From: Candidatus Saccharimonadota bacterium
Lineage (GTDB): Bacteria > Patescibacteriota > Saccharimonadia > UBA4664
DNA: 64,000 nt
Reading direction: 5' to 3'
NCBI GenBank assembly: GCA_019352195.1
Contig: JACAFG010000002.1
Location: 19,120 to 83,119 of the forward strand
Positions within the stretch are counted from its first letter, which is position 1, and every line of letters begins with the position of its first letter. This document shows, piece after piece, positions 4,251-50,004 of this stretch. The notes under the pieces are model-generated. The model had not been told where the DNA came from and ran no database searches. It worked only from the letters and a program-made list of their open reading frames with translations. The translations under genes were made by a program, and so were the position numbers.

Positions 4251-4368
4251 AGTCGTTTGAAGAAGGTTGTAAGTCGGTGGGCGGATGAGAAATTGCTGGT
4301 TTCTAGGGACTGAGTCGGTAGACTCAGGCAGAGGAGTACGCTGGTTAAGTCGTCGGACCGCACGCGCG

Positions 4369-5322
4369 CTAAAGCTGATTTTGATCCATATAGCCCGTGT
4401 ACCAGGAATAATTGTGGCCGAGGAATTTAGCGATTAACTCGATGCCGAGTTCGGCTGTCTTGCCGAGCTGGTCTTGCAGTGGATTGTACTCAACCACATC
4501 CACGCCAATGACGTTACAGTGATGGCCAATGTACTCGGCTACCGTGGCAATTTCGCGGTACGTCATACCCTTGGCGTTGGGCATGCCGGCGCCGGGAGCG
4601 TAAATTTGGTCGATACAGTCAAGATCGAGGCTAATCCAGATAGCGGGAACGCGGGAATTTAGCTCGTCGATAGCCGTAATAAGCCCGCCCAGACCTTGGG
4701 TTAAGAGATCAAACAGCGTGAAGGCGTGTAGGTTTTCGCGCTTGATGAGGTCGAGCTCGGCTTGATCCCAGTCACTGCCGCCCACATGAAGGAGCTGGTC
4801 GGTAGCAAGTTTCGTCTGCTCGCCGTGCACATGCGCGAGCTCAGGCGCACCGAAGCCCATGAGGCTGGCTAGGTGCATGCCATGGATGTTACCTGATAGG
4901 GTAGTGTCAGCCGTGTTCATGTCGCCATGGGCGTCGAAGTAGATGAGGCCAATATTGCCATTTTGGGAGGCGCTGGCGCCGGACATGGCGCCAAGATTAA
5001 CCGAGTGGTCGCCGCCAATGACAACAACTTTATGGCCGGACGTAATAGCGGCCTCGGTTTGGGCTGCAAGTTTGGTGTTGACGCGGACGATCTCGTCTAG
5101 ATAGCGTAAATTGGGCAGTCCCGGATCTAGCTCAGTGCGGTCGCCGACAGCAATATTGCCGCTATCGCTGAGACTTAGCCCGCTTTTACGCAGCTTGGTG
5201 ACGATATTTTGATGCCGAAATGCTTCGGGGCCAATGTTAACGCCTAAGTTTTTGGCGCCGAGGTCGAGAGGTACGCCAATGAGGGTAATTGGATGGTCGC
5301 TAGATTGATGGCTCATTGGCAT
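4369..5322 (-). CDS. arginase/agmatinase/formimidoylglutamase-family ureohydrolase
   Basis: GGDHS, DAHGD and SLDLDCID manganese-binding motifs. Six-frame ORF runs to 5400, but the likely start is M27 or M29 (5322 or 5316). A TATACT -10 box lies immediately upstream on the minus strand, which may indicate a leaderless mRNA. Confidence 0.65.
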   Translation of the reverse strand: MPMSHQSSDHPITLIGVPLDLGAKNLGVNIGPEAFRHQNIVTKLRKSGLSLSDSGNIAVGDRTELDPGLPNLRYLDEIVRVNTKLAAQTEAAITSGHKVVVIGGDHSVNLGAMSGASASQNGNIGLIYFDAHGDMNTADTTLSGNIHGMHLASLMGFGAPELAHVHGEQTKLATDQLLHVGGSDWDQAELDLIKRENLHAFTLFDLLTQGLGGLITAIDELNSRVPAIWISLDLDCIDQIYAPGAGMPNAKGMTYREIATVAEYIGHHCNVIGVDVVEYNPLQDQLGKTAELGIELIAKFLGHNYSWYTGYMDQNQL

Positions 5323-7120: not shown

Positions 7121-8791
7121 ATGGCAAAGAAGATTTTTTATGATGATGATGCTCGCGGCCGAGTGTTGGCTGGCGCCAAAGAACTCTATGACGCCGTTAA
7201 GGTAACAATGGGACCAAAGGGCCGTAACGTGGTGATTCAGCGCAGCTATGGCGGACCGGCCGTAACTCATGATGGCGTGACGGTTGCAAAAGCTGTCGAA
7301 ATCAACGAGTCAGTAAAAGACGATGCCTCATTGGGTAAGAGCGTGGGGGCAGAGCTAATTAAGAGTGCAGCTTCAAAGACGGCTGATAACGTTGGTGACG
7401 GTACAACCACTTCGACGGTACTGGCTTATCACATTTTGAATGAGGCTAATAAACTGGTTGCTGCCGGTCATAACCCGATGGACCTAAAAAAGGGCCTAGA
7501 TGAGGCGGCAGCGCTGGTTTTGGGCGCGGTTGGCAGTATGACCGAGCAAATTGCCGGTAAACGGGACAAAGTGGCTCAGGTAGCGACGGTATCGGCCGGA
7601 GACGCCGAAATTGGTGATTTAATTGCTGACGTGATTGAAGCTGTAGGTAACGATGGCAGTGTCACGGTTGAGCAGAGTCAAACTTTGGGTCTGGAGAAGG
7701 AAATTGTTGAAGGCTTCCAGATTGATCGCGGTTACATTAGTGCTTACATGTCGACTGATATGGTGCGAATGGAAGCCAGCTATGAAAAGCCGTTGATTTT
7801 GGTGACCGACAAGAAGATCGGTAATATTCAGGAAATCTTGCCGCTGCTCGAGAAGATCGCTCAGGGCGGTAAGAAAGAACTGGTGATTATTGCCGAAGAT
7901 GTTGAAGGCGACGCTTTGGCAACGCTTATTTTGAACCGGCTAAAGGGCGTTTTTAATACGCTAGCCATTAAGGCGCCTTCGTTTGGTGATCGCCGCAAAG
8001 CGACACTTGAAGATATTGCGATTCTTACGGGCGCAACCGTGATTAGCGAAGAAATGGGCTATTCATTTGAGAATGCCACGATCGAGATGCTGGGAACGGC
8101 CCGCAAAGTAATTTCGGATAAAGATTCGACCACAATTATTGAAGGCTCTGGTGATGCCAAAACCGTAGCCGAGCGTATGACCCAAATCAAAGCGCAGGCT
8201 GAAGATGCGACGAGCGAGTACGACAAGGAAAATCTTGAGAAGCGTTTGGCGGCTCTGGCTGGCAAAGTGGCGGTAATTAAGGTTGGCGGGGCTACCGAGA
8301 CCGAAATGAATGAGAAGAAAGACCGCGTTGATGATGCAGTGGCGGCTACGAAAGCAGCTGTGGCCGAGGGAATTGTTCCTGGCGGCGGGGTAACACTGGT
8401 CGATTTGAGTAAGAAGCTGGAAGTCGCGGCGACGACTGTTTCGAGCTCGGCACATGCAGGTCAATTGATTTTGAAAAACGCGCTAATGCAGCCGTTTAAG
8501 CAATTGATGCTAAACGCCGGTTTGAACGCCGAAGAGAAGCTGTCTAAGGTAATGGAATCGTCCGCCACCGGTATGGGTTTTGATGTGAACCAGGCAGATA
8601 AGTTGGTTAACCTTAAGGCGCAGGGAATTGTCGACCCGGCTAAAGTTACTCGTGAAGCGATTCAAAATGCCGTTTCGGTGGCCGGCACGGCTATGACTAT
8701 GGGCGCGCTGATCGTCGAGTTGCCAGAAGAAAAAGCGGCTCCATCGGCTGGTGGTGGCATGCCCGGCGGCATGGGCGGAATGGACTATTAA
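7121..8791 (+). CDS. groEL: chaperonin GroEL
   Basis: 556 aa. AKKIFYDDDAR...TMGPKGRNVV N-terminus, C-terminal GGM repeat (GGGMPGGMGGMDY). Confidence 0.95.
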   Translation: MAKKIFYDDDARGRVLAGAKELYDAVKVTMGPKGRNVVIQRSYGGPAVTHDGVTVAKAVEINESVKDDASLGKSVGAELIKSAASKTADNVGDGTTTSTVLAYHILNEANKLVAAGHNPMDLKKGLDEAAALVLGAVGSMTEQIAGKRDKVAQVATVSAGDAEIGDLIADVIEAVGNDGSVTVEQSQTLGLEKEIVEGFQIDRGYISAYMSTDMVRMEASYEKPLILVTDKKIGNIQEILPLLEKIAQGGKKELVIIAEDVEGDALATLILNRLKGVFNTLAIKAPSFGDRRKATLEDIAILTGATVISEEMGYSFENATIEMLGTARKVISDKDSTTIIEGSGDAKTVAERMTQIKAQAEDATSEYDKENLEKRLAALAGKVAVIKVGGATETEMNEKKDRVDDAVAATKAAVAEGIVPGGGVTLVDLSKKLEVAATTVSSSAHAGQLILKNALMQPFKQLMLNAGLNAEEKLSKVMESSATGMGFDVNQADKLVNLKAQGIVDPAKVTREAIQNAVSVAGTAMTMGALIVELPEEKAAPSAGGGMPGGMGGMDY

Positions 8792-8812
8792 CAAAGTCTA
8801 GCCTGATCTATA

Positions 8813-8842
8813 AAGAGGCTCCTGCGGGAGCCTCTTTCTTGT
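8813..8842 (+). terminator. intrinsic terminator of groESL
   Basis: aagaggctcc-tgcg-ggagcctctt followed by tctt. Confidence 0.75.
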
Positions 8843-8865
8843 TGGTTAAGCCACGACTGATGTAA

Positions 8866-8895
8866 TTGACGACAACTTTTGTGATGTGGTACTGT
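8866..8895 (+). promoter_or_regulatory. putative sigma70-type promoter P1 (TTGACG, 18-nt spacer, extended -10 TGgTACTGT) at the start of the GC-rich non-coding locus
   Basis: aaTTGACGacaacttttgtgatgTGgTACTGTctg. Near-identical architecture to P2 at 9938..9966. Confidence 0.4.
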
Positions 8896-9937
8896 CTGTT
8901 CCATCACGTGGCGTTTATAGCCATAAGAATTTTGACACTTCGGTTAGATTTCTGCCTCGATTGTTCGGCTGATAGCTTCGGTAGTACCGCGGTTGCCAGC
9001 CGAACAAACGAGTGCACCGTTTGTTTTGCCTTTGTCTGCGCGCGCTCGATTTTTGAACGAACGGCGGATAGAGTCCACGCCAGCAATTTCATAGTGAACC
9101 GGGCAACCGGGCCGCTTGAGTTAGTTGGCTGTGAGCTGAGTCGGTGGGCATGTCCATCGGCGTTCATTGACGGGCTGCCTGTAGCTCGCGAAGTCCTCGG
9201 AACAGATACCGAGGCAATCGAACAGCCCCGCACGTAAGTCTGCGCGGCAAAAGGCGCCGGCCGATCATCATATCGGCGGCAAACCGTTGTGCCTCAAGAA
9301 CGTCGGGCGTCATGAAGTAACGTCCCGAAACGGCTTGAGTTCATGTCCTGCGATGGTGTTAGGAGTGAACGGCTTGAACGCTCGTGACCCGACCTTGTAG
9401 TTTGTCCTGGCCCTTCGACCCTGTCCATGTCACTGCGAGGGGCGCTCAGCGCTCAACCAAACCTCCGGCCCGCCGCGGCCACCTGATCCCGTCGATCGCC
9501 GCGAACATGGGATCAATGCAACATTGATTCGCGGCAACTGCTATGTGGATGCGGCGTCGAAGCTGCCGTGTCCTCGGTTGGTGTTGGTTCTCGTTCACAC
9601 CAAGTGCTGTTCGCAGGGCGGACAACACATGATTTCAGCACTGTGCCGAGGCTCTGTCATGCGGCGTATCTTTGCGGCCTGGCCGCGTCTGTGGGACTCA
9701 GACGGGCGAGCCGAACAATTACGGATGGCGCCAAAGATCACGAACAGCGCACGAGAAGTGCTGATTGGCATTGTTGATTAAAGTTAGTACTACGGCCGCC
9801 AGGGCCGGCCCTGCGATAGGGCAAAATTTGGACCGCGCGGTTGGCGGACGGGGTTCGCAAGACCCTCGTCCGCCAACTGACCGCCATTGTGGGCGTTTGT
9901 ACAATTGTACGAGCGCCCTTTTGCTTAACAAAAGTTG

Positions 9938-9966
9938 TTGACAAAGTTAGACTAATATGCTACTGT
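9938..9966 (+). promoter_or_regulatory. putative promoter P2 (TTGACA, 17-nt spacer, extended -10 TGcTACTGT) internal to the non-coding locus
   Basis: gTTGACAaagttagactaataTGcTACTGTtttt, embedded in a local AT-rich patch inside roughly 60 % GC sequence. Confidence 0.4.
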
Positions 9967-10634
9967 TTTTCTCATCTGCCGCTATGGCAGCCCTTTGACA
10001 CCAATCAAGAAACGTTGTTGCCCGACTGCGAGCTACGCAACCTGCGTGGTTTACAGTCGGGCAACACGCAGGTTGCCGACATTGAGATCGCGGTTCGGGA
10101 AGGCCACTGACTGGCCTCAGCTGCGATCCACCACCACCACTTCCACATTCGCCGGCGACTCGACGGGCGTCCCCGTCTACCGGGACACCGGTAGACGGGT
10201 GGCCGGCAGCGCGGCCAGCGGGTTCATGCCCGCGGCCGGCTGATCGGTCTCGCGGCCCAAAAGAATTACGCCTCCTTGGCGTAGCGAGCAAGCAATTCGT
10301 CGGTACTCAGATAAGCAGACAACTGGCCGCTAGGCTGGTCTGATGAACTACTGAGATACGAACGGCGATTTGATCTCGCGTTGTTTGAGCGTCCCTCAGG
10401 TCGGCGGACCTTACTCGCGGCTTGGCACAGTCGACGGTTGCATGACCGTTCATTGCCGGCTGGCTGGAATATAACGGACTCCTCTGAGAGCCATATTCCG
10501 GCCAGTCCCAAACTTCCGCCTCCGGGCGATTCGAAACGCTCGTTGATGAACGCATGTGGCGCTGATCTGGTCCGACGCCTCGGCCGTGGAGGATCGGGCC
10601 GACTAGGCTGCCGTTTGTTTGATCTCAACGAGTG

Positions 10635-10677
10635 CCGGACCGGAGCACACTCCCTGTGATGGGGTGCTCCGGTCCGG
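10635..10677 (+). terminator. long perfect hairpin (14-bp stem): first of two tandem terminator-like structures at the 3' end of the non-coding locus
   Basis: ccggaccggagcac-N15-gtgctccggtccgg. Confidence 0.5.
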
Positions 10678-10718
10678 ACTAGCTTCTTGATTGGTACGTT
10701 TGTACCTCGTTCACCCTC

Positions 10719-10748
10719 GCGGGACCATCTGGTCCCGCTTTTGCGTGT
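10719..10748 (+). terminator. intrinsic terminator (8-bp GC stem plus U-tract)
   Basis: gcgggacc-atct-ggtcccgc followed by ttttgcgtgttttg. Confidence 0.65.
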
Positions 10749-10784
10749 TTTGCGGCAATTATTTTAAAATGCTAGGCTTAGAGT

Positions 10785-11570
10785 ATGGAAATGCCTTCAT
10801 TGTTGAATCAACGTGCCGAAGAGATCTTAACGTTTATTGAGTCCTACCGGGCAGAATATGGTTGGGCGCGGGTCGTTGAGTTGGCGCGTGAGAAGTTTGT
10901 TGAAAATGAAGCTCAGCCGGCGCAGCAAGCCTTGGGCGATTTGCTGCTGCAGGCACGGACCTTGGCGCTGGTTCAAGGGCAGCTCGACGATGATCGGCAC
11001 GCCTTGCACTCGGGCCGGCTGAATCATGAGCAAGACATCAGCATCGGGCATCATTACGAGATGCTGCGCCAGGAAGCGTGTACCTACAACCATCAGTTGC
11101 GCGGTTTTATTGAATCGCACCGCGACAGCGTTGATAGGTATGACCTCACGAGATGGTTGGCGACGGCGAGCGGTGGCCGTCACGCTTGGGCTGAAAGCGA
11201 AATTACCGGGGCGGTGAGTGAAATTGCGCTTCATGCAGCACTGATGGGGTTGCCTGAGCTGGTAGATTTGCGCTACGGCAGCTTGGGTGAAGATTTGCAC
11301 GGCTATGACTTTGTGGCCACATGGCAGGGACGGCTGTTAACGGTTGACGCCAAAACCGGTTATTTTCACCCTTTGACCGAGGAAAAGCATGGTCATGAGC
11401 ATCTGGAAATTCATGTGCCGAGGGATGTAGTGCAGGGCTTTCGGCTAACGAGGAGCGGTTTAGACGATTTACGCCGCGATGTTCGCGGGGCGTTGCGGTT
11501 TAAAGTTGGTGTCGAGCCCCATGCTTCGCACAAGCACTACGCCTTTAAACCGATTGTCGCAACGGCGTAA
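10785..11570 (+). CDS. hypothetical protein (261 aa), no recognisable domain
   Basis: Long ORF with protein-like composition, flanked by GC-rich non-genic sequence on both sides. Confidence 0.5.
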   Translation: MEMPSLLNQRAEEILTFIESYRAEYGWARVVELAREKFVENEAQPAQQALGDLLLQARTLALVQGQLDDDRHALHSGRLNHEQDISIGHHYEMLRQEACTYNHQLRGFIESHRDSVDRYDLTRWLATASGGRHAWAESEITGAVSEIALHAALMGLPELVDLRYGSLGEDLHGYDFVATWQGRLLTVDAKTGYFHPLTEEKHGHEHLEIHVPRDVVQGFRLTRSGLDDLRRDVRGALRFKVGVEPHASHKHYAFKPIVATA

Positions 11571-13123: not shown

Positions 13124-13169
13124 GCAATTATTGCCGAAAATGCTGATCAAGAAGGCGTAAACTAGCAGT

Positions 13170-13586: not shown

Positions 13587-14021
13587 ATGGCAGACAACGA
13601 GAACTTGAAAGCCAAGCCGGATGCGTTTTGGCGTGAGAAACTAACACCCGAGCAATATCGGGTGATGCGCGAGCGGGGAACCGAGCGTCCTTATACCGAA
13701 ACTTATGCCGACAACACGTCAGCCGGCGTCTACAAGTGTGCTGCTTGTGGCAACGACTTATTTTCAAGTGACACTAAGTTTGAGAGTACTGCTCCGGGGC
13801 TAGCCGGCTGGCCGGCCTTTAGCGCCGAACTGAGTCAAGGAAAAGTTGAGCTCGTCGAAGATCGTTCTTTGGGTATGAGCCGCACCGAAATAACGTGTGG
13901 TCGGTGTGGTGCTCATTTGGGGCACCTGTTCACAGACGATCCCGCCTCGACCAATGGCATGCATTACTGCGTAAATTCGGTGGCGCTGGCGTTTGATCCT
14001 AAGGAGACCGGTAAGGCGTGA
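13587..14021 (+). CDS. msrB: peptide-methionine (R)-S-oxide reductase MsrB
   Basis: SelR fold with two CxxC zinc motifs (CAACGND..., CGRCGAHLGHLF). aaggagacgagtt RBS. Confidence 0.85.
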   Translation: MADNENLKAKPDAFWREKLTPEQYRVMRERGTERPYTETYADNTSAGVYKCAACGNDLFSSDTKFESTAPGLAGWPAFSAELSQGKVELVEDRSLGMSRTEITCGRCGAHLGHLFTDDPASTNGMHYCVNSVALAFDPKETGKA

Positions 14022-14329
14022 TGTATTCGGAGCTGGTTGAGGAAGCTCAGGCGGCTTATCCGCACATTGAAGCCGGCGAGATGTTTAGCATGGCGTGTTT
14101 GAAACTGGACGACAAAGTGCTGGGCGGCGATTGGCACGGCGATTTTGTGGTCAAATTAAGTGAGGATGGGGCTAAAAAAGCACTGGAAATTACCGGAGCG
14201 GTGCAATTTTCGCCCGCAACAGGGCACGTAATGAAGCAATGGATTGTGGTCCCGGCGGCCGTGAGCGATCGCTGGTTTAAGTTGCTCGAGCAAGCTGTCG
14301 AGTATCGGATGTCGCATGAATACAAGTAA
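14018..14329 (+). CDS. hypothetical protein, TfoX N-terminal-domain-like
   Basis: 103 aa. ATGA overlap with msrB. EMFSMACLKLDDKVLGG...VVKL pattern resembles the TfoX_N fold. Confidence 0.4.
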   Translation: MMYSELVEEAQAAYPHIEAGEMFSMACLKLDDKVLGGDWHGDFVVKLSEDGAKKALEITGAVQFSPATGHVMKQWIVVPAAVSDRWFKLLEQAVEYRMSHEYK

Positions 14330-15086
14330 ACCTTGGGCTTTAATTACGGGAGCATCAGGCGGTATTGGGCTTGAGCTCACTCGGCTGGAGGCGGCTGATG
14401 GTTATAATCTGTTGTTGGTCGCGCGTGATGGGGCCGGTTTATCCAAAGTAGCAGCTGATTTAGCGGCCCATGACCGCCAAATTGATGTACTGGCGGTGGA
14501 TTTGGGTTTGCCGGGTGCCGCGGCCAAGGTAGCCGCGTGGGTGGGTGAGCGTCCGGTGGAGCTGTTGATTAATAATGCTGGTTTTGCCACTCACGGGGCC
14601 GTAGCCGAGATGGATCAAGCTGAGCTAGCGAGCGAAATTGGGGTCAATGTAACTACGCTCACTGAATTGTCACGCTTGATGCTGCCGGGGATGTAGCTCC
14701 GAAAGCGGGGTAAAATTCTCAATTTGGCATCAACGGCCGGTTTTCTGCCGGGTCCAGTGATGGCGGTTTACTATGCTACGAAAGCCTACGTGTTGTCATT
14801 TTCAGTGGCGTTGGCGGATGAGGTTAAACCAGATGGTGTTACGGTAACGGTGTTGTGTCCCGGGCCAACAAGAACCGGCTTTGCGGCGCGTGCCCAGGTG
14901 GAATCGTCACGCTTATTTAGGGGGCATGTGATGGAGGCATCGGTGGTTGCCAAAGCCGGCTACGACGGGTTAAAAAACGGCAAAGTAATAGTGGTGCCGG
15001 GTATCGGCAACAAACTTAATACCTGGGGCATCCGGTTAGTGCCACGAGTGCTAGCGGCCAAAGTGGCGCGACGAGAGCAATCATGA
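14316..15086 (+). pseudogene. short-chain dehydrogenase/reductase (SDR) interrupted by a single in-frame TAG at 14694..14696
   Basis: ORFs 14316..14696 and 14724..15086 are in the same frame. Reading through gives ...[38 protein letters not shown], a canonical SDR core (TGASGGIG glycine loop, YxxxK). Confidence 0.6.
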
Positions 15087-15502
15087 AGGCCTGGATTGGG
15101 GTCGTGGCACGTAGTCATGTCGAGCAGGGAATTCGAGAAAAGATTGCCCAACTGGGGCACGGTACACGAGCGCCATTGGCGCGCCTCAGCCCAGGAGACT
15201 GGCTGATCTACTATTCGTCGCAGTCCGAATATCCCGATGGTGAGCCGGTGCAAGCCTTTACGGCGATCGGACGAGTGCCCGATGATGAAATTTATGAGCA
15301 GGTAACCGAAAGTGGTTTTCACCCGTTTCGACGTCGGGTTGAGTATGTGGAGGCGAAAGAGGCGCCGATTAAACCGTTGTTACCCTATCTGTCGTTTAGT
15401 CGCAACACGTCCAATTGGGGCATGGTGATGCGGCGGGGATTGGTGGAGATTACCATAGAGGATGTGAAGCTGATTGCTGAAGCCATGGGCGCGACAGTTT
15501 AA
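15083..15502 (+). CDS. EVE/PUA-like domain protein (putative modified-base reader)
   Basis: 139 aa. GDWLIYYSS...AIGRV core and C-terminal RRRVEYVEAKEAPIKPLLPYLSF resemble the EVE (PF01878) pattern. Confidence 0.4.
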   Translation: MKAWIGVVARSHVEQGIREKIAQLGHGTRAPLARLSPGDWLIYYSSQSEYPDGEPVQAFTAIGRVPDDEIYEQVTESGFHPFRRRVEYVEAKEAPIKPLLPYLSFSRNTSNWGMVMRRGLVEITIEDVKLIAEAMGATV

Positions 15503-15519
15503 CAATCGGAAGGCCCAAA

Positions 15520-15546
15520 AAACGAGCCATTATGGCTCGTTTTTTA
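15520..15546. terminator. intrinsic terminator (A-tract, hairpin, T-tract; potentially bidirectional)
   Basis: aaaaaacgagccat-tat-ggctcgttttttag. Confidence 0.7.
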
Positions 15547-15810
15547 GTTACCTGAAGGCTCAAATAATTGAGCACTCGGGTAGTGGCCTCATCGAGTCGC
15601 CTGAAGGCGGCCCAGTGAGGCTATCATCACTTTTCCCGGTGATGAACTGTCGGGTGGTGGGCCGGACTACTCGCCCATGAGGGCTAGCTCGCGCGAGGTG
15701 AAGAGGCCGTACCGACTGAGGTCGGTGTTATCTTGTGGTAGTTCTGCGGGGATCCCGATCGGATCGGGGTCGGTCTCTCCCCGGGGAAGCTCGAAGGCGA
15801 GCTCGCTGGA

Positions 15811-15845
15811 TTGACGCATGTGCCTGCACCGCATACACTGTATGC
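15811..15845 (+). promoter_or_regulatory. promoter (TTGACG, 17-nt spacer, TACACT) with an overlapping perfect palindrome operator for the vapBC-like operon; the transcript is predicted leaderless
   Basis: The -10 box lies 6 nt before the ATG. GCATACA-C-TGTATGC palindrome at 15831..15845 straddles the -10 box. Confidence 0.5.
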
Positions 15846-16097
15846 ATGACAAATATTCAATACACCATTCGTAATATTCCCCCCGCGTTGGATCAGGTGA
15901 TCCGTAAGCGCGCGCAGCAATCGGGCAAGTCGTTTAATAAGACGGTTGTCGATTTGTTGGTGCAACAGGCCTTTGGAACGAAGGAGGTGCCGGTTGATGA
16001 TAATTTTGATTGGTTATTCGGGGTTAATACACTTGATCCGTCGTTTGATGAAGCGATTGCGGAACAATCGAAGCCCGATCCAAAGATGTGGGCGTGA
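15846..16097 (+). CDS. type II antitoxin, VapB/ribbon-helix-helix-like (84 aa)
   Basis: Small acidic protein MTNIQYTIRNIPPALDQVIRKRAQQSGKSFNK... Overlaps the downstream PIN-domain gene by 10 nt. Confidence 0.6.
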   Translation: MTNIQYTIRNIPPALDQVIRKRAQQSGKSFNKTVVDLLVQQAFGTKEVPVDDNFDWLFGVNTLDPSFDEAIAEQSKPDPKMWA

Positions 16098-16483
16098 AAT
16101 ACGTTCTCGACACGAGTGCTTTCTCGGCGTTTAATCGGGGCGATGTGCGCTTGGAGCGGTATCTTAGGAGTGAACATGAGATTTTGGTGCCGCTGGTGGT
16201 AATAGCCGAGCTGCGGGCCGGGTTTGCGCTGGGGAGTCGGCGGGCGGAAAATGACCGAATTTTGGAACGGTTATTGAATTCGTCCAATGTAACGGTGGTG
16301 AGCTTAAACGACGAAACGGCTAACGTCTATGCCGATGTTTTTTTACGCCAACGCGAGGTAGGCCGGCCGGTGGGGGCGAATGATATGTGGATTGCGGCTT
16401 CCGCGATTGAGCGTGATTTACCTGTGCTGACGCTTGACCATGATTTTGATGGAATTGTCGGCCTGAAAGTAGTGGAATTGTGA
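16088..16483 (+). CDS. vapC: PIN-domain toxin VapC
   Basis: VLDTSA...D motif and ...ND.WIAA. 131 aa. GTG start overlapping the antitoxin stop. Confidence 0.7.
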   Translation: MGVKYVLDTSAFSAFNRGDVRLERYLRSEHEILVPLVVIAELRAGFALGSRRAENDRILERLLNSSNVTVVSLNDETANVYADVFLRQREVGRPVGANDMWIAASAIERDLPVLTLDHDFDGIVGLKVVEL

Positions 16484-17998: not shown

Positions 17999-18433
17999 TT
18001 AGTTTGAAGCGGTTGAAGTCTGCGGTGGTACCGACACAGTAGTACTGCTGGTGGCTGGTGACTCGCCGGCGCTGCAGACCTTTGGAACCATTACTGTGGT
18101 CCCAATTGGCAGAATGGTAGCATCGTCACCGGCAAAGCCGTTGCGCAGACGAACCAATTGGGCCCAGCTGCTGGTACTGTCAGAACGACTCCAATCGAAG
18201 CCGGCTTCGCCAACTTCGGCTGGTTGCATGCCGGTCACGAAGTTGATCCAGCTGACCGGTTGGCCGTTGACTTTGATTGGGCCGTTGCAGGCGTACACTG
18301 CCTCCTGCTTTCCAACCGAACTGGTGTCAGGAGAGCAGGCCGACAATCCCAGGGTGAGACTGACGGCTGCGGCCGCTGCCAGGATGAAGCGGACGAAGGG
18401 ACGGTGGGCGGGTCGTGCGGGGGCGATTCTCAT
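17999..18433 (-). CDS. putative secreted lipoprotein
   Basis: Likely start at M48 of the 191-aa six-frame ORF: MRIAPARPAHRPFVRFILAAAAAVSLTLGLSAC with an LSAC lipobox. Confidence 0.45.
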   Translation of the reverse strand: MRIAPARPAHRPFVRFILAAAAAVSLTLGLSACSPDTSSVGKQEAVYACNGPIKVNGQPVSWINFVTGMQPAEVGEAGFDWSRSDSTSSWAQLVRLRNGFAGDDATILPIGTTVMVPKVCSAGESPATSSTTVSVPPQTSTASN

Positions 18434-18545
18434 CGCGGGGCTCCAAGTTGTGGGGTGCGGAATGTACCTTGCTGAGCCTGTGACGGGTGTCGCAGGCTCA
18501 GTGGGGTGCCGGAGATATCGCTCTCCGGCAGGCGTCGAACGCTTA

Positions 18546-18923
18546 CTAGCAAATGACCTCGATATGACCGTCATCGTAGGCTACCAGGAAGACCGGTGGC
18601 TCGATGCCATATTCGTCGGCCAAATCCAAGACAACATCGCGGAGTATCACATTGCCGAACTGCGTTCTCATCCAGGCGTCTTCGGACAAGACAACGGCGG
18701 CCATGGTGCGTTCAGTCCTGTCCAAGATGGACGTGGCCATAATTTGGGCTGTCTGGTCTTGCTTGTGTAGCGGGACGTCGGCGCAAGTCCATTGCTCAAT
18801 GGTCATTGATACTACGTATGTAATCACGACGTCATCTTCCTTGAGGAAGGTGACGAGCTGGGGTAGCTGGTCGGCGTTGATGCCAACTGCTATAAGTCGG
18901 ATGGACGTGGTGGTTGTCTTCAT
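18546..18923 (-). CDS. hypothetical protein (125 aa)
   Basis: Protein-like composition (MKTTTTSIRLIAVGINADQLPQLVTFL...). Upstream AT-rich divergent promoter region 18930..19090. Confidence 0.4.
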   Translation of the reverse strand: MKTTTTSIRLIAVGINADQLPQLVTFLKEDDVVITYVVSMTIEQWTCADVPLHKQDQTAQIMATSILDRTERTMAAVVLSEDAWMRTQFGNVILRDVVLDLADEYGIEPPVFLVAYDDGHIEVIC

Positions 18924-44170: not shown

Positions 44171-44309
44171 GAGCCGCTTGTTTTACCGCCGACCGAGGCT
44201 AAATACCTTGGTCGGCGGGCCCGACTTTCATTTCAAGCGTAAACGGTTTGAAGTAAGAGCAGGGTAGTGACTTGCATATGTTGCTCAAATCTGATAGTAT
44301 TCTGGAGTT

Positions 44310-45572: not shown

Positions 45573-47684
45573 ATGGAACATGAGATCATTAACCCCTTTG
45601 GGAACAAGATCCGCCAGTTTACGACGGAGTTTTGTGGCCGCGAACTAACTATTGAAACTGGCAAAATGGGCTTTTTGGCCGATGGCGCGGTAACCGTTCG
45701 CTACGGCGACACGGTGGTACTTGGTACGGCCGTGGTGAGCAATCAGCCTCGCGAAGGCATGGATTTCTTTCCACTGCTCGTCGATTATGAAGAGCGATTT
45801 TATGCGGGCGGCAAAATTAGCGGCAGTAGGTTTATTAAGCGTGAAGGCCGAGCGAGCGAGCACGGCACGCTGAGCGCGCGTCTTATTGACCGTCCGGTGC
45901 GTCCGCTGTTTCCTAAAGGCTATCGTCACGACGTGCAAACCGTCGCGATGGTGCTGAGTATTGATAACGAGCTGGCGCCAAACATTGTAGCCATGACGGC
46001 GGTTTCGACGGCCTTGATGCTAAGCGGCGCGCCATTTGACGGCCCGATTGCCGGTGTTCGCATTGGCCTGATTGACGGCGAACTCGTGGCCTTTCCCAGC
46101 GAAGAGCAAATGGCTCAGTCGAAGCTGGATCTGACGGTGGCTGGCACCAAAGACGCCATTATGATGGTGGAAGCTGGCGCGGATGAAGTCGATGAAGCTA
46201 CGATGGTTGAAGCCATCGAACTGGCGCACAAAAGCATCCAGCCGCTCATTGAGCTGCAACTTGAGGCGGTAAAGGCTCTCGGCGTAAAAGAGAAGCCCTA
46301 CGAGTTGTTCTTGGCTGATACCGATTTGATGAGCGCGATTACCGAATTTCTCACCGGCAAACTCGGGCCGGCTATCCGTCACCAAGATCACTACATTCGC
46401 CACGACGCCATAAAGAGCCTGGAACAAGAGGTGGTAGCGCAGTTTAGCGGCGACTACGAGCACGCTGACATTGAAGTGGCATACCGCAAAGTTATTGATT
46501 ATGAAATCCGCCGCGGCATTGTCGAAGACGGCGAACGGCCTGACGGCCGCAAGACCACCGAGGTGCGACCAATTTCGGCCCAGGTCGGTTTACTGCCGCG
46601 TACGCACGGCTCGGCGTTGTTTACCCGCGGGACTACGCAGGTATTGAACGTTACTACGGTGGCTTCTACCAGCTACGCGCAACTCATCGACACCATGGAA
46701 GAAAACACCACCAAGCGCTACATGCATCATTACAATGCACCTGGCTACAGTAGTGGTGAAGTTCGCCCTATGCGTACCCCGGGCCGGCGCGAAATTGGTC
46801 ATGGCGCGTTAGCGGAACGGGCTTTGCTGCCGGTAATTCCGAGCGTCGAAGATTTTCCGTACACCATTCGTACGGTCAGTGAAGTCTTAAGCCAAAACGG
46901 CTCGAGCTCCATGGCGTCGGTGTGCGGCTCTACTTTGAGCCTGATGGACGCGGGTGTCCCAATTGTAAAACCAGTCAGCGGTATTGCGATGGGCCTTATT
47001 ACCAATGTTGATAAGCCGCCGGTGATTCTCACCGACATTCAGGGTGCGGAAGATTTTGCGGGTGATATGGACTTTAAAGTAGCAGGTACTACCGACGGCA
47101 TTACCGCTCTTCAAATGGATATCAAGGTAAAAGGTATTACGCCCGGCATCATGAAGGACGCTTTGGCGCAGGCGAAAGTCGGTCGCGCGCATATTTTGAG
47201 CGAGATGATGAAAGTCTTGGATTCGCCTCGCGAAGAGATGAGTCCGTTTGCCCCGCGGATTTACAAAGTGATGATTAAGCCCGAGAAGATCGCCTTAGTA
47301 ATTGGTAAGGGTGGCGAGACTATCAACAAGATTATCGCTGAAACCGGAGTCGAGATTGATATTGAAGATAGCGGTTTGGTAATGATTAGTGCGACGGAGC
47401 CCGAGGGCGCGGAGCGTGCTATGGCGATGGTTCGCGGCCTCACCGAAGATCCTGAAGTAGGTGCGGTGTATAGCGGACGCGTCGTTAAGCTTATGGAGTT
47501 TGGCGCCTTCGTTAACATCATGCCGGGACGAGACGGCCTCGTGCATGTCTCACAAATGGCAGATCACCGCGTGGAAAAGGTGAGTGATATCGTTGAAGTC
47601 GGCGATATTGTGAAGGTGAAATTGACCGAGATTGATTCGGCGGGTAGACTGAATCTTAGTATGAAGGCGGTTGCACAAGACTAG
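45573..47684 (+). CDS. pnp: polyribonucleotide nucleotidyltransferase (PNPase)
   Basis: Two RNase PH domains, KH and S1 domains. 703 aa. Confidence 0.95.
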   Translation: MEHEIINPFGNKIRQFTTEFCGRELTIETGKMGFLADGAVTVRYGDTVVLGTAVVSNQPREGMDFFPLLVDYEERFYAGGKISGSRFIKREGRASEHGTLSARLIDRPVRPLFPKGYRHDVQTVAMVLSIDNELAPNIVAMTAVSTALMLSGAPFDGPIAGVRIGLIDGELVAFPSEEQMAQSKLDLTVAGTKDAIMMVEAGADEVDEATMVEAIELAHKSIQPLIELQLEAVKALGVKEKPYELFLADTDLMSAITEFLTGKLGPAIRHQDHYIRHDAIKSLEQEVVAQFSGDYEHADIEVAYRKVIDYEIRRGIVEDGERPDGRKTTEVRPISAQVGLLPRTHGSALFTRGTTQVLNVTTVASTSYAQLIDTMEENTTKRYMHHYNAPGYSSGEVRPMRTPGRREIGHGALAERALLPVIPSVEDFPYTIRTVSEVLSQNGSSSMASVCGSTLSLMDAGVPIVKPVSGIAMGLITNVDKPPVILTDIQGAEDFAGDMDFKVAGTTDGITALQMDIKVKGITPGIMKDALAQAKVGRAHILSEMMKVLDSPREEMSPFAPRIYKVMIKPEKIALVIGKGGETINKIIAETGVEIDIEDSGLVMISATEPEGAERAMAMVRGLTEDPEVGAVYSGRVVKLMEFGAFVNIMPGRDGLVHVSQMADHRVEKVSDIVEVGDIVKVKLTEIDSAGRLNLSMKAVAQD

Positions 47685-47892
47685 CTTTCGTGGGACTTTC
47701 GTCCCACTCAGCATGCGATTTCTCGTAGAAATGGTGTCCTGGGAACGGCGAAAACGTGCCTGTCTAACTTTGGTAACGAGTGAAGCAGATGACTTTATTT
47801 ATTCGAATAAAGCCCTCTTCCTTGCTCGGGACTTCTCTCGAACAAACTAATTTTAAGGCTCTCAATTTTTGAGCCACCGATAAAGGAAATAT

Positions 47893-50004
47893 ATGGAACC
47901 TAATCCATCAAACAAACCAAACGATCAGCCATCAGATCAACCGCGCCCCGCGACGCAGACTCAAAATAGCAACGCGCCGCAGGGCGAACGTCAGCAGGGA
48001 CAAAACCGCAATAATAACCAGCGCGGCCGCGGCAACGGTGGCGGTAATCGCAACCCGCAAAACAATGGTCCGCGACCAGCCGGTGCCGAGGGCCAAAACC
48101 CTCAGCAGCCGCGTCCGCCGCGTGAAAATGGGGTAAGCAACGCAGTTAGCCGCCAACGCCGCCGTATTGCGCAGCAAGGTCCCCAGCACACCGATTTGCT
48201 GCCGTCGCTTGATTTTATGCCGGTTAACAAGAGCCTGTTTAATGGTGCCGCCGGTACACAACAAGCCAAAAAAGGCGCGCAAAACCGTGGTCCGGCCAAC
48301 CAACTTAGTCGTGAGCCCAAGTTGCGCATAATCCCGTTGGGTGGACTCGGCGAAGTAGGCAAGAACATGATGGCAATAGAGTATGGCGACGACATCATTA
48401 CTGTCGACATGGGCTTTATGTTCCCTAACCCAACTAAGCAGCCGGGCGTCGATTACATGATTCCGGATGTAACTTACCTGATAAAAAACAAGCACAAGAT
48501 CCGTGGTCACATTCTCTCTCACGCTCACGAAGACCACATGGGTGGTATTCCGTTTATTTTGCCACAACTGCCAGCCCCAATTTTTACGGCTCGTTTTTCG
48601 GCCGGCATGGTTGAAAAGAAGCTCGTTGAGTATCACCTGCAAACGCAGCCACAAATTCGGGTGCTCGATCCCGATATTCATGAGCGCGTGCAACTGGGCG
48701 TCTTCAATATTGAGCTGGTGCGTGTGACGCACGCTATTCCTGATGCTTGCGCGGTGGTGATTTCAACTCCGGTTGGTAAGATCATCAACACCGGCGATTG
48801 GCGCTTTGATCCAACCCCCGTCGACAACAAAGTGGCCGATAAGCCGCGTCTCGAAGAACTCGGTCGGGAGGGTGTATTGCTCCTTATGGGCGACTCAACC
48901 TCATGCGAACTCCCGGGTCGCTCGATGTCCGAGATGGCGATTGCCGATAGTTTTGATGACGTCTTTGGACGTGCCGAAGGCCGCATTATTTTGGCCAGTT
49001 TCTCGAGTCAGATTAACCGTATCCAGCTTGTAATCGATTCAACCGCGCGAGCTGGTCGTAAGATCGCTTTTGTGGGCCGCTCGATGCTTGCTAACGTAGA
49101 GCTCGCGGTAAAACTGGGCTACCTCAAGGTACCTGCCGGTATCGTGATGAAGGTACAGGAAATTGTTAACCAGCCCGACAACAAAGTTGTGGTGATGTGT
49201 ACCGGTTCGCAGGGTGAAGAAAACTCGGCCCTCACACGCATGGGTAACGGTGAGCACCAGAACATCAAGATTAAGGCTGGCGACAGCATTATCTTCAGTT
49301 CATCGATTATTCCGGGTAACGACCGCTCTGTCACCAGTTCAATGGATGGCCTTATGCGTGAAGGTGCCCGCGTTTATCACCACATTTTCCGCGACCTCGA
49401 CCACGTAGGTCCCTTGCACGTTGGTGGTCACGGTCACCGCGAAGAGGTGATTGAGATGGTTCAGCTCGTGAAGCCGAAGTTCTTTGTGCCAATTCATGGT
49501 GAGTTCCATATGCTCGTTCGTAACGCTGAAGCGGCTATCGAAGCTGGTATTCCGCAGAGCAACGTGTTTGTGATGGACAACGGTGACGTGCTTGAACTGA
49601 CAGCTGACTCGGCCGCCAAAGCTCCACGTGTTCAGGCTGGGATCGTAATGATTGACGGTGCCGGCATTGGTGACGTCGAAGGCGTAGTATTGCGCGACCG
49701 CGTTGCCTTGGCGAGTGAAGGCGTCTTCATGATTATTGCGACGGTAAGCCGCAAAACCGGTAAACTTATCTCAAGCCCAGATATCATTTCGCGCGGGTTT
49801 ATTTACATGAAAGATAACGAAGATCTTATCAATAAAACGCGGGCCGAAGTACGCCGTGCGTTTGAGAAGAAATCCAATACTGGTCCGATGACCCGTGAAG
49901 ACTGGACGAAGTTCAAGCTTAATTTGCGTGATGATGTGGCCGACTATCTGTACTCGCAAACAAAGCGCAATCCAATGGTGTTGCCGGTAGTAAACGAAGT
50001 TTAA
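47893..50004 (+). CDS. rnj: ribonuclease J with a roughly 140-aa disordered Gln/Asn/Gly/Arg-rich N-terminal extension
   Basis: HAHEDHMGG metallo-beta-lactamase motif, beta-CASP and C-terminal domain. N-terminal MEPNPSNKPNDQPSDQPRPATQTQNSNAPQGERQQGQNRNNNQRGRGNGGGNRNPQNNGPRPAG... Confidence 0.9.
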   Translation: MEPNPSNKPNDQPSDQPRPATQTQNSNAPQGERQQGQNRNNNQRGRGNGGGNRNPQNNGPRPAGAEGQNPQQPRPPRENGVSNAVSRQRRRIAQQGPQHTDLLPSLDFMPVNKSLFNGAAGTQQAKKGAQNRGPANQLSREPKLRIIPLGGLGEVGKNMMAIEYGDDIITVDMGFMFPNPTKQPGVDYMIPDVTYLIKNKHKIRGHILSHAHEDHMGGIPFILPQLPAPIFTARFSAGMVEKKLVEYHLQTQPQIRVLDPDIHERVQLGVFNIELVRVTHAIPDACAVVISTPVGKIINTGDWRFDPTPVDNKVADKPRLEELGREGVLLLMGDSTSCELPGRSMSEMAIADSFDDVFGRAEGRIILASFSSQINRIQLVIDSTARAGRKIAFVGRSMLANVELAVKLGYLKVPAGIVMKVQEIVNQPDNKVVVMCTGSQGEENSALTRMGNGEHQNIKIKAGDSIIFSSSIIPGNDRSVTSSMDGLMREGARVYHHIFRDLDHVGPLHVGGHGHREEVIEMVQLVKPKFFVPIHGEFHMLVRNAEAAIEAGIPQSNVFVMDNGDVLELTADSAAKAPRVQAGIVMIDGAGIGDVEGVVLRDRVALASEGVFMIIATVSRKTGKLISSPDIISRGFIYMKDNEDLINKTRAEVRRAFEKKSNTGPMTREDWTKFKLNLRDDVADYLYSQTKRNPMVLPVVNEV

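Follow-up and report, generated by a model that had tools for sequence, protein, structure and literature searches.

Two tandem promoters downstream of groEL likely head two structured non-coding RNAs of a Saccharimonadia cassette family

The subject of this analysis is the 1.9-kilobase (kb) non-coding stretch that lies between the stop codon of groEL (8791) and the start of the next gene (10785) in a 64-kb window, that is, the whole stretch of DNA from a Candidatus Saccharimonadota bacterium that was analyzed. The stretch contains two promoters, P1 and P2, that a sequence-only reading had noticed for their common architecture. Our analysis indicates that these are likely to be independent, strong sigma-70 extended -10 promoters of two tandem RNAs of ~1025 and ~774 nucleotides (nt), referred to as units 1 and 2, which belong to a family of cassettes in Saccharimonadia. 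In the frame that we propose for this family, a near-consensus -35 element, a spacer of 17-18 nt and TGnTAnnnT are followed, after 6 nt, by a probable transcription start at CAUC, and then by a small hairpin near the 5' end and the motif YYGACA, which reads UUUGACA in the window. In most members, the frame would be closed by a helix of 12-16 base pairs (bp), formed between the bases that follow UUG and a segment located ~30-55 nt ahead of the 3' end, and would finish with a C-rich tail and an intrinsic terminator. The body held inside the frame (0.5-1.2 kb) would be exceptionally well folded, yet cannot be aligned between genomes. The 5' hairpin and the end-to-end helix would guard the RNA against exonucleases, and the closing helix may also serve as a processing stem.

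Both promoters lie on the forward strand and are present as described earlier (the leading g that had been written with P2 is 9937). P1 (8866..8895) is composed of the -35 element TTGACG (8866-8871), an 18-nt spacer, TG at 8887-8888 and the -10 hexamer TACTGT (8890-8895), and P2 (9938..9966) of TTGACA (9938-9943), a 17-nt spacer, TG at 9958-9959 and TACTGT (9961-9966), the extended elements being TGgTACTGT and TGcTACTGT, respectively. As in other extended -10 sigma-70 promoters, TG stands one base upstream of the -10 hexamer, a TTGACA-type -35 element is found 16-19 nt upstream (a spacer of 17-18 nt here), and T1, A2 and T6, the most important positions of the hexamer, are kept in TACTGT. What differs is that TACTGT departs from TATAAT at positions 3-5, and that, with their near-perfect -35 elements, P1 and P2 are the strongest promoters of this kind in the window. 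Both are probably real promoters. It should be noted that the 9-mer TGNTACTGT alone is not significantly enriched (three copies against 1.1 expected, with 10 of 100 shuffles reaching three), and that a generic sigma-70 scan omitted P1 and P2, as TACTGT fits TATAAT at only three of six positions, both of which could speak for chance promoter-like matches in non-functional spacer DNA. Such an origin is nonetheless extremely improbable, as a search of both strands of the 64 kb gave two copies of the composite TTGACN-N14-16-TGNTACTGT, as compared to none in 100 dinucleotide-preserving shuffles, as the positions of both matches relative to the terminators fit promoters, and as the promoter and the leader that follows it are kept in more than 10 related loci.

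The sequence-only reading had considered the architecture of P1 and P2 to be unusual and their identical -10 hexamers to be a sign of a shared origin or regulator. The extended -10, however, is the general promoter style of the window: a scan for TTGnnn-16-19-TGnTAnnnT also returned the promoters of groES (6750, TGcTAGAAT) and of the gene that follows unit 2 (10750, TGcTAGGCT), together with sites at 44272 and 63481, and P1 and P2 stand out solely by the near-perfect -35 element and the common TACTGT. When further TGnTACTGT promoters were sought in the window, only a third copy of TGNTACTGT was added, at 18172, which lies among overlapping open reading frames (ORFs; 17999-18574 on the reverse strand and 18051-18770 on the forward strand) and has no TTGAC at -35 spacing. 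As for the identical hexamers, a shared origin stands and a shared regulator does not. Homologous units in related genomes use other -10 hexamers (TAATAT, TAGTAT, TAACAT, TAGCAT, TACGCT, TACGAT, TAAGAT and TACAAT), which leaves TACTGT as a peculiarity of this genome's two units; the common origin of units 1 and 2 is supported instead by the conserved leader that appears to be transcribed from both. A palindrome, ACAA-N3-TTGT, also occurs at both promoters, inside the P1 spacer (8872-8882) and abutting the -35 element of P2 (9928-9938), where it is part of a 17-nt inverted repeat with 88% complementarity. It is absent from the promoters of the other family members and may be a genome-specific operator or due to chance.

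Each promoter sits between intrinsic terminators, and the locus thus contains two promoter-to-terminator units on the forward strand. The groEL ORF (7121-8791, forward strand, with groES upstream) is followed by an intrinsic terminator identified in the terminator scan at 8812..8837 (AAAGAGGCTCC-TGCG-GGAGCCTCTTT, then a T-rich tail), which would separate unit 1 from groESL transcription. Unit 1, a predicted non-coding RNA of 1025 nt (8902..9926), comprises CAUC (8902-8905), a hairpin (8908-8912 / 8920-8924), UUUGACA (8931-8937), a GC-rich body and a terminator (9891..9926) that was recognized both in the terminator scan and as inverted repeat I7; its 12-bp stem, GGGCGTTTGTAC / GTACGAGCGCCC, is followed by TTTTGCTT, with TTTTGC directly after the hairpin (9891-9918). 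Unit 2, a predicted non-coding RNA of 774 nt (9973..10746), comprises CAUC (9973-9976), a hairpin formed by CUGCC (9976-9980) and GGCAG (9986-9990), UUUGACA (9994-10000), a body, a tail and a terminator from the same scan (10719..10746; GCGGGACC-ATCT-GGTCCCGC, then TTTTGCGT), in which TTTTGCG stands directly after the hairpin (10719-10738). The ends of both units thus show the GC-rich hairpin and the T-run of an intrinsic terminator. The starts that had been predicted near 8902 and 9973 indeed fall on CATC exactly 6 nt after the -10 hexamer, an arrangement seen in nine of ten family members; CATC at this distance is, in itself, only suggestive of a transcription start.

The earlier reading had offered two tandem RNAs or an internal promoter within one long RNA. 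The former fits better, since each promoter follows a terminator and heads a unit with a terminator of its own. A single RNA of ~1.85 kb transcribed from P1, with P2 as an internal or secondary promoter, is unlikely. It could be argued for from the proximity of the units, which lie 46 nt apart on the same strand, from the failure of an automatic terminator finder (allowing for at most one stem mismatch) to report the mismatched stem of unit 1, so that some read-through is plausible, and from a weak complementarity of 79% (I13) between the 5' end of unit 1 and the 3' hairpin region of unit 2. A 12-bp GC-rich hairpin and TTTTGC nevertheless stand between the units, unit 2 starts with a full leader and is enclosed, by itself, in a closing helix, and two related loci, L082 and L083, carry single units of the unit 2 type with the same ends. 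Among the relatives, the units are found either singly (L082, L083) or paired (L085, L013), and they are therefore considered to be autonomous.

What follows the promoters is also alike in the two units: 6 nt, CATC, a small hairpin and TTTGACAC (8902-8938 and 9973-10001), such that CAUC, a 5' hairpin and YYGACA are all present within ~45 nt of the promoter in both. The pattern CATC-N12-30-TTTGACAC occurs twice in the window, with 0.12 occurrences expected. The use of the downstream TTGACA as the -35 element of a second promoter was considered and rejected, as inspection by eye of the members checked revealed no suitably spaced -10 element. The MAFFT alignment of the two units was uninformative past the promoter and leader; no similarity was detected by blastn between the bodies of family units, tandem neighbors included, and units 1 and 2 were thus rejected as recent duplicates.

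Relatives of the two units were collected in several ways. A comparison set of 80 groEL loci from GTDB species representatives, nearly all labelled Saccharimonadia or Saccharibacteria, contained no homologue of the body of 8790-10790 according to blastn and nhmmer, the sole match being the promoter of the next gene. Closer relatives (L082-L085) were fetched through homologues (P0001-P0092) of the 261-residue protein that this next gene encodes. One unit was found in L082, alignable to unit 2 (nhmmer, E 2e-5) and headed by a promoter orthologous to P2 (TTGACA-17-TGcTAATAT), one unit in L083 and L084, and two tandem units in a 2.1-kb ORF-free gap of L085. All of these present TTGAC(A/G), a 17-18 nt spacer, TGnTAnnnT, 5-6 nt and CATC, then a hairpin and TTGACA or TTAACA, except for the second L085 unit, which lacks the hairpin. 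L013, L019 and L025 were added by a regular-expression scan and a closing-helix scan, and L115/L137 by a pattern scan of metagenome contigs that gave ~100 matches, most of them unrelated and one group (L129) representing the leader of a genuine rRNA operon. In total, the signature of promoter, CATC, hairpin and TTGACA was found in L082, L083/L084, L085 (twice), L013, L019, L115/L137 and L025, and in Saccharimonadia, eight or more related loci contain ORF-free units that are headed by it. P1 aligns with the promoters of nine related units (alignment A5). A covariance model of promoter and leader (R1), built from this alignment, added L009, a second leader in L013, L023, L021, a further site in L025 and L200/L201; the scores that R1 gave to unit 1 (46.7 bits) and unit 2 (61.9 bits) are not independent, as both are rows of the training set.

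Some further observations were made during these searches. A scan of viral sequences with the composite pattern returned eight matches, about the number expected by chance from a rough estimate of size, and since most of these read as chance or coding, a viral association was rejected. One look-alike, on a 37.5-kb contig with 37% GC that is classified as viral (L087 and L110; IMG/VR UViG_3300021131_000021), carries TTGACA-17-TGaTACAAT, 6 nt, CATC, the hairpin CUACUAGUAG and AUUGACA, and no closing helix was detected downstream of it. In otherwise unalignable bodies, a conserved hairpin loop, GAAACUUUAAGUAG, closed by GCCC/GGGC recurs (L083:~4310-4335, L085:~4975-5000 and L194:~170-195), with a related sequence, AGUAGGGCA, in L082, and its AGUAG could pair with CUACU of the leader hairpin.

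The two paired elements at the ends of the proposed RNAs show covariation. For the leader hairpin, 86.7% of the aligned cells are paired and four of five pairs are changed on both sides, values that none of 500 column shuffles reached, while registers slid along the alignment are only 21-45% paired. The closing helix was found in seven of ten members, unit 2 included. In six units, it is a perfect Watson-Crick complement of 11-16 nt that lies within the 18 nt after UUG and has its 3' partner within ~46-88 nt of the 3' end, and in L083, a bulge separates two runs of 7 nt (7+7); the controls, which were probes taken from the same units, gave at most 6-12 nt. This perfect-complement control was used since an energy-based control was confounded by GC-rich probes from the bodies. 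In unit 2, the two strands, ACCAAUCAAGAA (10000..10011) and UUCUUGAUUGGU (10684..10695, 51 nt before the end of the unit), form a perfect 12-nt complement with arms 672 nt apart (inverted repeat I8). Minimum-energy folds recover the helix in six units. The helix differs in sequence in every genome, while its pairing is kept: when it is anchored on ACA/UGU, 13 of 17 positions are changed on both sides and 84% are paired (32-41% in slid registers), although, as the 3' strands were picked by complementarity, these numbers should be read with that selection in mind. The G-U pairs in the hairpin (seven of 39 paired cells) and in the closing helix fit the forward strand, and L115 and L137, which are near-identical, differ in their bodies by two substitutions, both of them C to U at positions that face G.

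For unit 1, no closing helix of the family type was found, the longest complementary run being 4 nt. The segment ATTGTTCGGCT of unit 1 (8960-8970) has, however, two perfect or near-perfect partners, at 8997-9007 (30 nt away) and at 9709-9719 (AGCCGAACAAT, 750 nt away), with GCSAGCCGAACAA being duplicated at 8995 and 9706. The alternative long-range pairing of ATTGTTCGGCT may replace the closing helix that unit 1 lacks.

The order of elements in the frame resembles that of the leader of a ribosomal RNA (rRNA) operon, where a promoter is followed by a boxB hairpin, boxA and then, enclosing a structured RNA that is rich in GC, a long-range stem for RNase III processing. In the Escherichia coli rrnB P2 leader, as we read it, the transcription start is followed by the boxB hairpin GCCGC...GCGGC, 2 nt, boxA (TGCTCTTTAACAA) and the region of the RNase III stem. 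The two units present a hairpin and then a boxA-like motif within ~50 nt of the start, in the order and with the spacing of rrnB P2, with the stem being found in unit 2 and not in unit 1. The boxA consensus drifts between phyla. Relative to GYTCTTTAANA, the gamma-proteobacterial consensus (PMC5725501), the motif by eye matches at 9/11 positions in unit 2 (GCCCTTTGACA), at 7/11 in unit 1 (GAATTTTGACA) and at 10/11 in L083 (GCACTTTAACA); other members present CCCTGACA or CATCGACA at this site. A pattern derived from the family also matched a genuine 16S operon leader (L129; small-subunit rRNA score of 881 bits), which contains CATC, a hairpin and TTTGACA and receives 23.7 bits from R1. L129 comes from a different bacterium, and its 16S gene lacks the TM7 primer sites that were tried. 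Unlike in an rRNA operon, the enclosed RNA is not rRNA, measures 0.5-1.2 kb and lacks sequence conservation; the boxA-like motif has a variable U-tract, and its last three bases, ACA, belong to the closing helix.

A boxA element is also found before other long untranslated RNAs, namely CRISPR arrays (PMC7665894). The units share with such arrays a long untranslated RNA that would be open to Rho and a boxA-like element near the promoter, and differ from them in having no repeats or spacers, with no cas genes among the ORFs examined. The recruitment of Nus factors to shield a long RNA from Rho is reasonable on account of the order of the elements, the boxA matches, L129 and the precedent of the CRISPR arrays. 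We thus tentatively suggest, as a possibility that falls short of being probable, that the hairpin-UUUGACA module may act as a boxB-boxA antitermination leader that allows for escape from Rho and for folding during transcription. By analogy, the closest functional counterparts of the units would be genes of stable RNAs that have an rRNA-type leader and a processing stem, and if the rRNA-like leader were confirmed, this would be another reuse of ribosomal antitermination for long untranslated RNAs.

The bodies of the units show no sign of coding. The longest ORF between groEL and the next gene is of 123 codons, and the translations are junk-like, being rich in Arg, Ala and Cys; public gene calls for the stretch include one ORF of 40 residues only. 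The spread of GC content between codon phases is 0.107 in unit 1 and 0.141 in unit 2, with ~0.115 in shuffles and 0.22-0.28 in groEL, the next gene and pgi. Hidden coding in both units was thus rejected on the basis of ORF translations, frame plots and phase-spread statistics. The predicted folds are far more stable than those of shuffled copies. The minimum free energy is -441 kcal/mol for unit 1 (z -7.7 relative to dinucleotide shuffles) and -386 kcal/mol for unit 2 (z -10.8 to -11.8), with values of z -6 to -13 in eight of nine family units, as compared to -1.7, -0.4 and -1.3 for three ordinary genes of the window. The fold of unit 2 is ornate, multi-branched and GC-rich, and includes several perfect stems of 12-15 bp. 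At the beginning of its body, two strong hairpins are mutually exclusive (10016-10039/10043-10066, 24 nt with 83% complementarity, and 10037-10048/10065-10076, 12 nt and perfect), and this region (10016-10076) resembles a switch or a co-transcriptional folding intermediate. C-rich and apparently unpaired tails precede the terminators in the window (10696-10718) and in L013, L019, L023 and L025 (e.g., CUCCCCUCCGC and CCAUCCUCCCAC). Moreover, several members share the motif GCAAUUAU in their tails, and it is also present in the promoter spacer of the next gene (10755-10762) and just past a transfer RNA (tRNA) gene (13124-13131).

Reading P1 and P2 as promoters of two structured RNAs has some weaknesses that should be considered when referring to the results. 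The starts, ends and expression of units 1 and 2 are deduced from sequence. As several members were found with patterns built from the motifs themselves, and as the 3' strands in the helix covariation were chosen by complementarity, the comparison is partly circular. Nor is the frame uniform, since unit 1, L082 and the second L085 unit (L085B) have no convincing closing helix. The better-folding strand is the forward strand for the window units and the reverse strand for five other members. The U-tract of boxA is not kept in all members (CCCUGACA, CAUCGACA and CAUUGACA), and the window contains TTTRACA alone about as often as chance would give (16 occurrences against 15.5 expected). Finally, one member is coding. 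In L009, the frame (7860-9130), with its leader hairpin, CCUGACA and a 16-bp closing helix, surrounds an ORF of 342 codons that has a Shine-Dalgarno sequence (GAGGAGG), GC contents of 0.68/0.51/0.85 at the three codon positions and a spread between phases of 0.367, and this coding body also folds well (z -6.6). The frame is thus not reserved for non-coding RNA, and bodies without an ORF in other members could, in principle, be old decayed genes.

The GC content of 85% at third codon positions in L009 is far above that of the host genes. The only homologue of its protein among 5.8 billion proteins is found in L200 (1963-3320), behind the same leader, where it has been split into two ORFs by a stop codon and adjoins an HTH_38 protein. 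As the L009 ORF lies within the frame, the frame is therefore an expression cassette that is able to carry messenger RNA (mRNA), and it can carry foreign-looking coding cargo. From here, one could consider all of the bodies as horizontally acquired coding cassettes that have decayed within an intact expression frame, the RNAs being functionless. The orphan, GC3-rich ORF of L009 and L200, already split in the latter, is a real one, and the bodies in the window, which cannot be aligned between genomes, are richer in GC than their flanks (0.57-0.60 as compared to 0.53), as are those in most, although not all, of the related loci. We nonetheless regard general decay as rather unlikely. Nine of ten units have no residual codon periodicity, and a tblastn search with the L009 protein gave no match in the remaining units. 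The lack of an ORF in the nine units other than L009 is a real difference and not an artefact of the method. Furthermore, decaying genes would not be expected to give z values of -6 to -13 (-0.4 to -1.7 in the controls), and in many species, ORF-free bodies are still surrounded by an intact promoter, leader, closing helix and terminator, with both of the L115/L137 substitutions preserving the pairing.

The third reading to be weighed against two structured RNAs places the function in the DNA: the closing helix would represent the terminal inverted repeats of a mobile or recombined cassette, and the inverted repeats would be cruciform-type substrates of the resolvase-like neighbor. Copy number (one or two) and the side of the 261-residue protein gene at which the units lie indeed vary between genomes, relatives have anything from 170 nt to 5 kb between groEL and the next gene, with the contigs of close relatives breaking there, the neighbor has a weak Hjc/RecU-like fold, and the reverse strand folds as well or better in five members. 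We consider this reading to be very improbable all the same, as the inverted repeats differ in every unit, whereas the ends of transposons are conserved within a family, as no transposase or integrase adjoins the window units and low-stringency blastn of the locus gave no match to phage or plasmid DNA, and as the repeats stand at fixed distances from the start and the terminator, within the promoter-to-terminator frame. In addition, the G-U pairs of the hairpin and helix would be A-C mismatches on the other strand. As for the breaking contigs, those of the closest relatives (L193-L198) are short, stop immediately upstream of the neighboring gene and yield no orthologous RNA. Three of these short-read contigs stop 28-52 nt upstream of that gene (L193:1-52, L195:1-38 and L196:1-28), where the edge of an RNA unit would be expected, suggesting strain-level variability or repeats that break the assembly.

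The neighboring gene (10750..11570, forward strand) starts with its own promoter, TTGCGG-17-TGcTAGGCT (10750-10778), and ATG at 10785, and encodes a conserved protein of 261 residues with no sequence match in Pfam, PADLOC, NCBIfam or PDB. The promoter, AAAATGCTAGGCTT, and the placement of ATG 6 nt past the -10 hexamer are kept in relatives, which probably implies a leaderless mRNA. The AlphaFold2 model of the protein (pLDDT 91) consists of long N-terminal helices and a C-terminal alpha/beta domain, in which D175, D188 and K190 are invariant among the homologues, and Foldseek gives weak matches to resolvases of the Hjc/RecU type (E 0.3-1.3). A member of this protein family is found at most 1.5 kb from nine of ten units, on either side, including L115/L137, which was found by DNA pattern alone, although this count is biased, as the loci were largely collected via the gene for the protein or via groEL. 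In L082, a clear paralogue (hmmsearch, E 2e-20) lies directly upstream of the orthologue, followed by two ORFs of similar size that have no match to the profile.

The modelled nuclease-like protein should be taken as the best lead to a partner of the RNAs and not as a result. The arrangement is reminiscent of type III toxin-antitoxin systems (ToxIN-like), in which a strongly expressed structured RNA gene, as predicted here, a terminator and the gene of a nuclease-like protein come together, and the two travel together in the nine of ten units mentioned. It differs from these systems in that the units are not built from short tandem repeats, a separate promoter serves the protein gene, the RNA may lie on either side of the gene, and the protein has no PADLOC or Pfam match. 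Indeed, only two-copy repeat families were found in place of a tandem array, the closest copies being 80 and 165 nt apart, and no repeated loop motif, as would suit a protein sponge, was seen.

More generally, the units are similar to the large structured RNAs OLE, GOLLD, ROOL and raiA of bacteria in being several hundred nt long, ornate, multi-branched, restricted to a lineage and equipped with their own promoters. These known RNAs, however, have conserved cores, whereas here the ends are conserved and the body has diverged, with no match in Rfam. Over the whole window, Rfam 15 (4227 models) at gathering thresholds returned one tRNA and nothing else, and over 8700-10900, at E values of up to 10, nothing rose above noise, matches to small- and large-subunit rRNA included. 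A literature search surfaced no description of such RNAs. We offer as speculation, with considerable doubt, that these are Saccharimonadia-specific large structured RNAs expressed from an rRNA-like frame, with fast-diverging bodies that work by shape and not by sequence, possibly as a decoy, inhibitor or substrate of the Hjc/RecU-like neighbor. If the pairing with this neighbor is true, it would be an RNA-protein module in a variable island beside groESL, and the recurrence of the nuclease-like gene offers a concrete candidate for a partner.

The promoters themselves are ordinary, and matter as markers of two genes in an RNA family that matches nothing in Rfam 15. The genomes of Saccharimonadia are tiny (~1 Mb), and 1.9 kb of strongly promoted non-coding DNA is costly. 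To our knowledge, large structured RNAs have hardly been looked for in the candidate phyla radiation (CPR). If the RNAs are real, they would add structured RNAs of 0.6-1.3 kb to the CPR, as well as an unusual mode of evolution, in which conserved ends covary while the interior is unalignable yet highly folded.

Two observations concern other parts of the window. At 14018-16483, short ORFs on the same strand overlap or lie a few nt apart, among them a short-chain dehydrogenase truncated at 126 residues, which suggests frameshifts, being due to either pseudogenes or assembly errors. At 45573-50004, two adjacent and mutually unrelated ORFs of 703 codons each carry motifs that, by eye, point to a putative polynucleotide phosphorylase (PNPase) with a C-terminal S1 domain and a putative RNase J-type metallo-beta-lactamase. 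These would be enzymes of RNA decay, and they bear on how stable RNAs may be protected in this organism.

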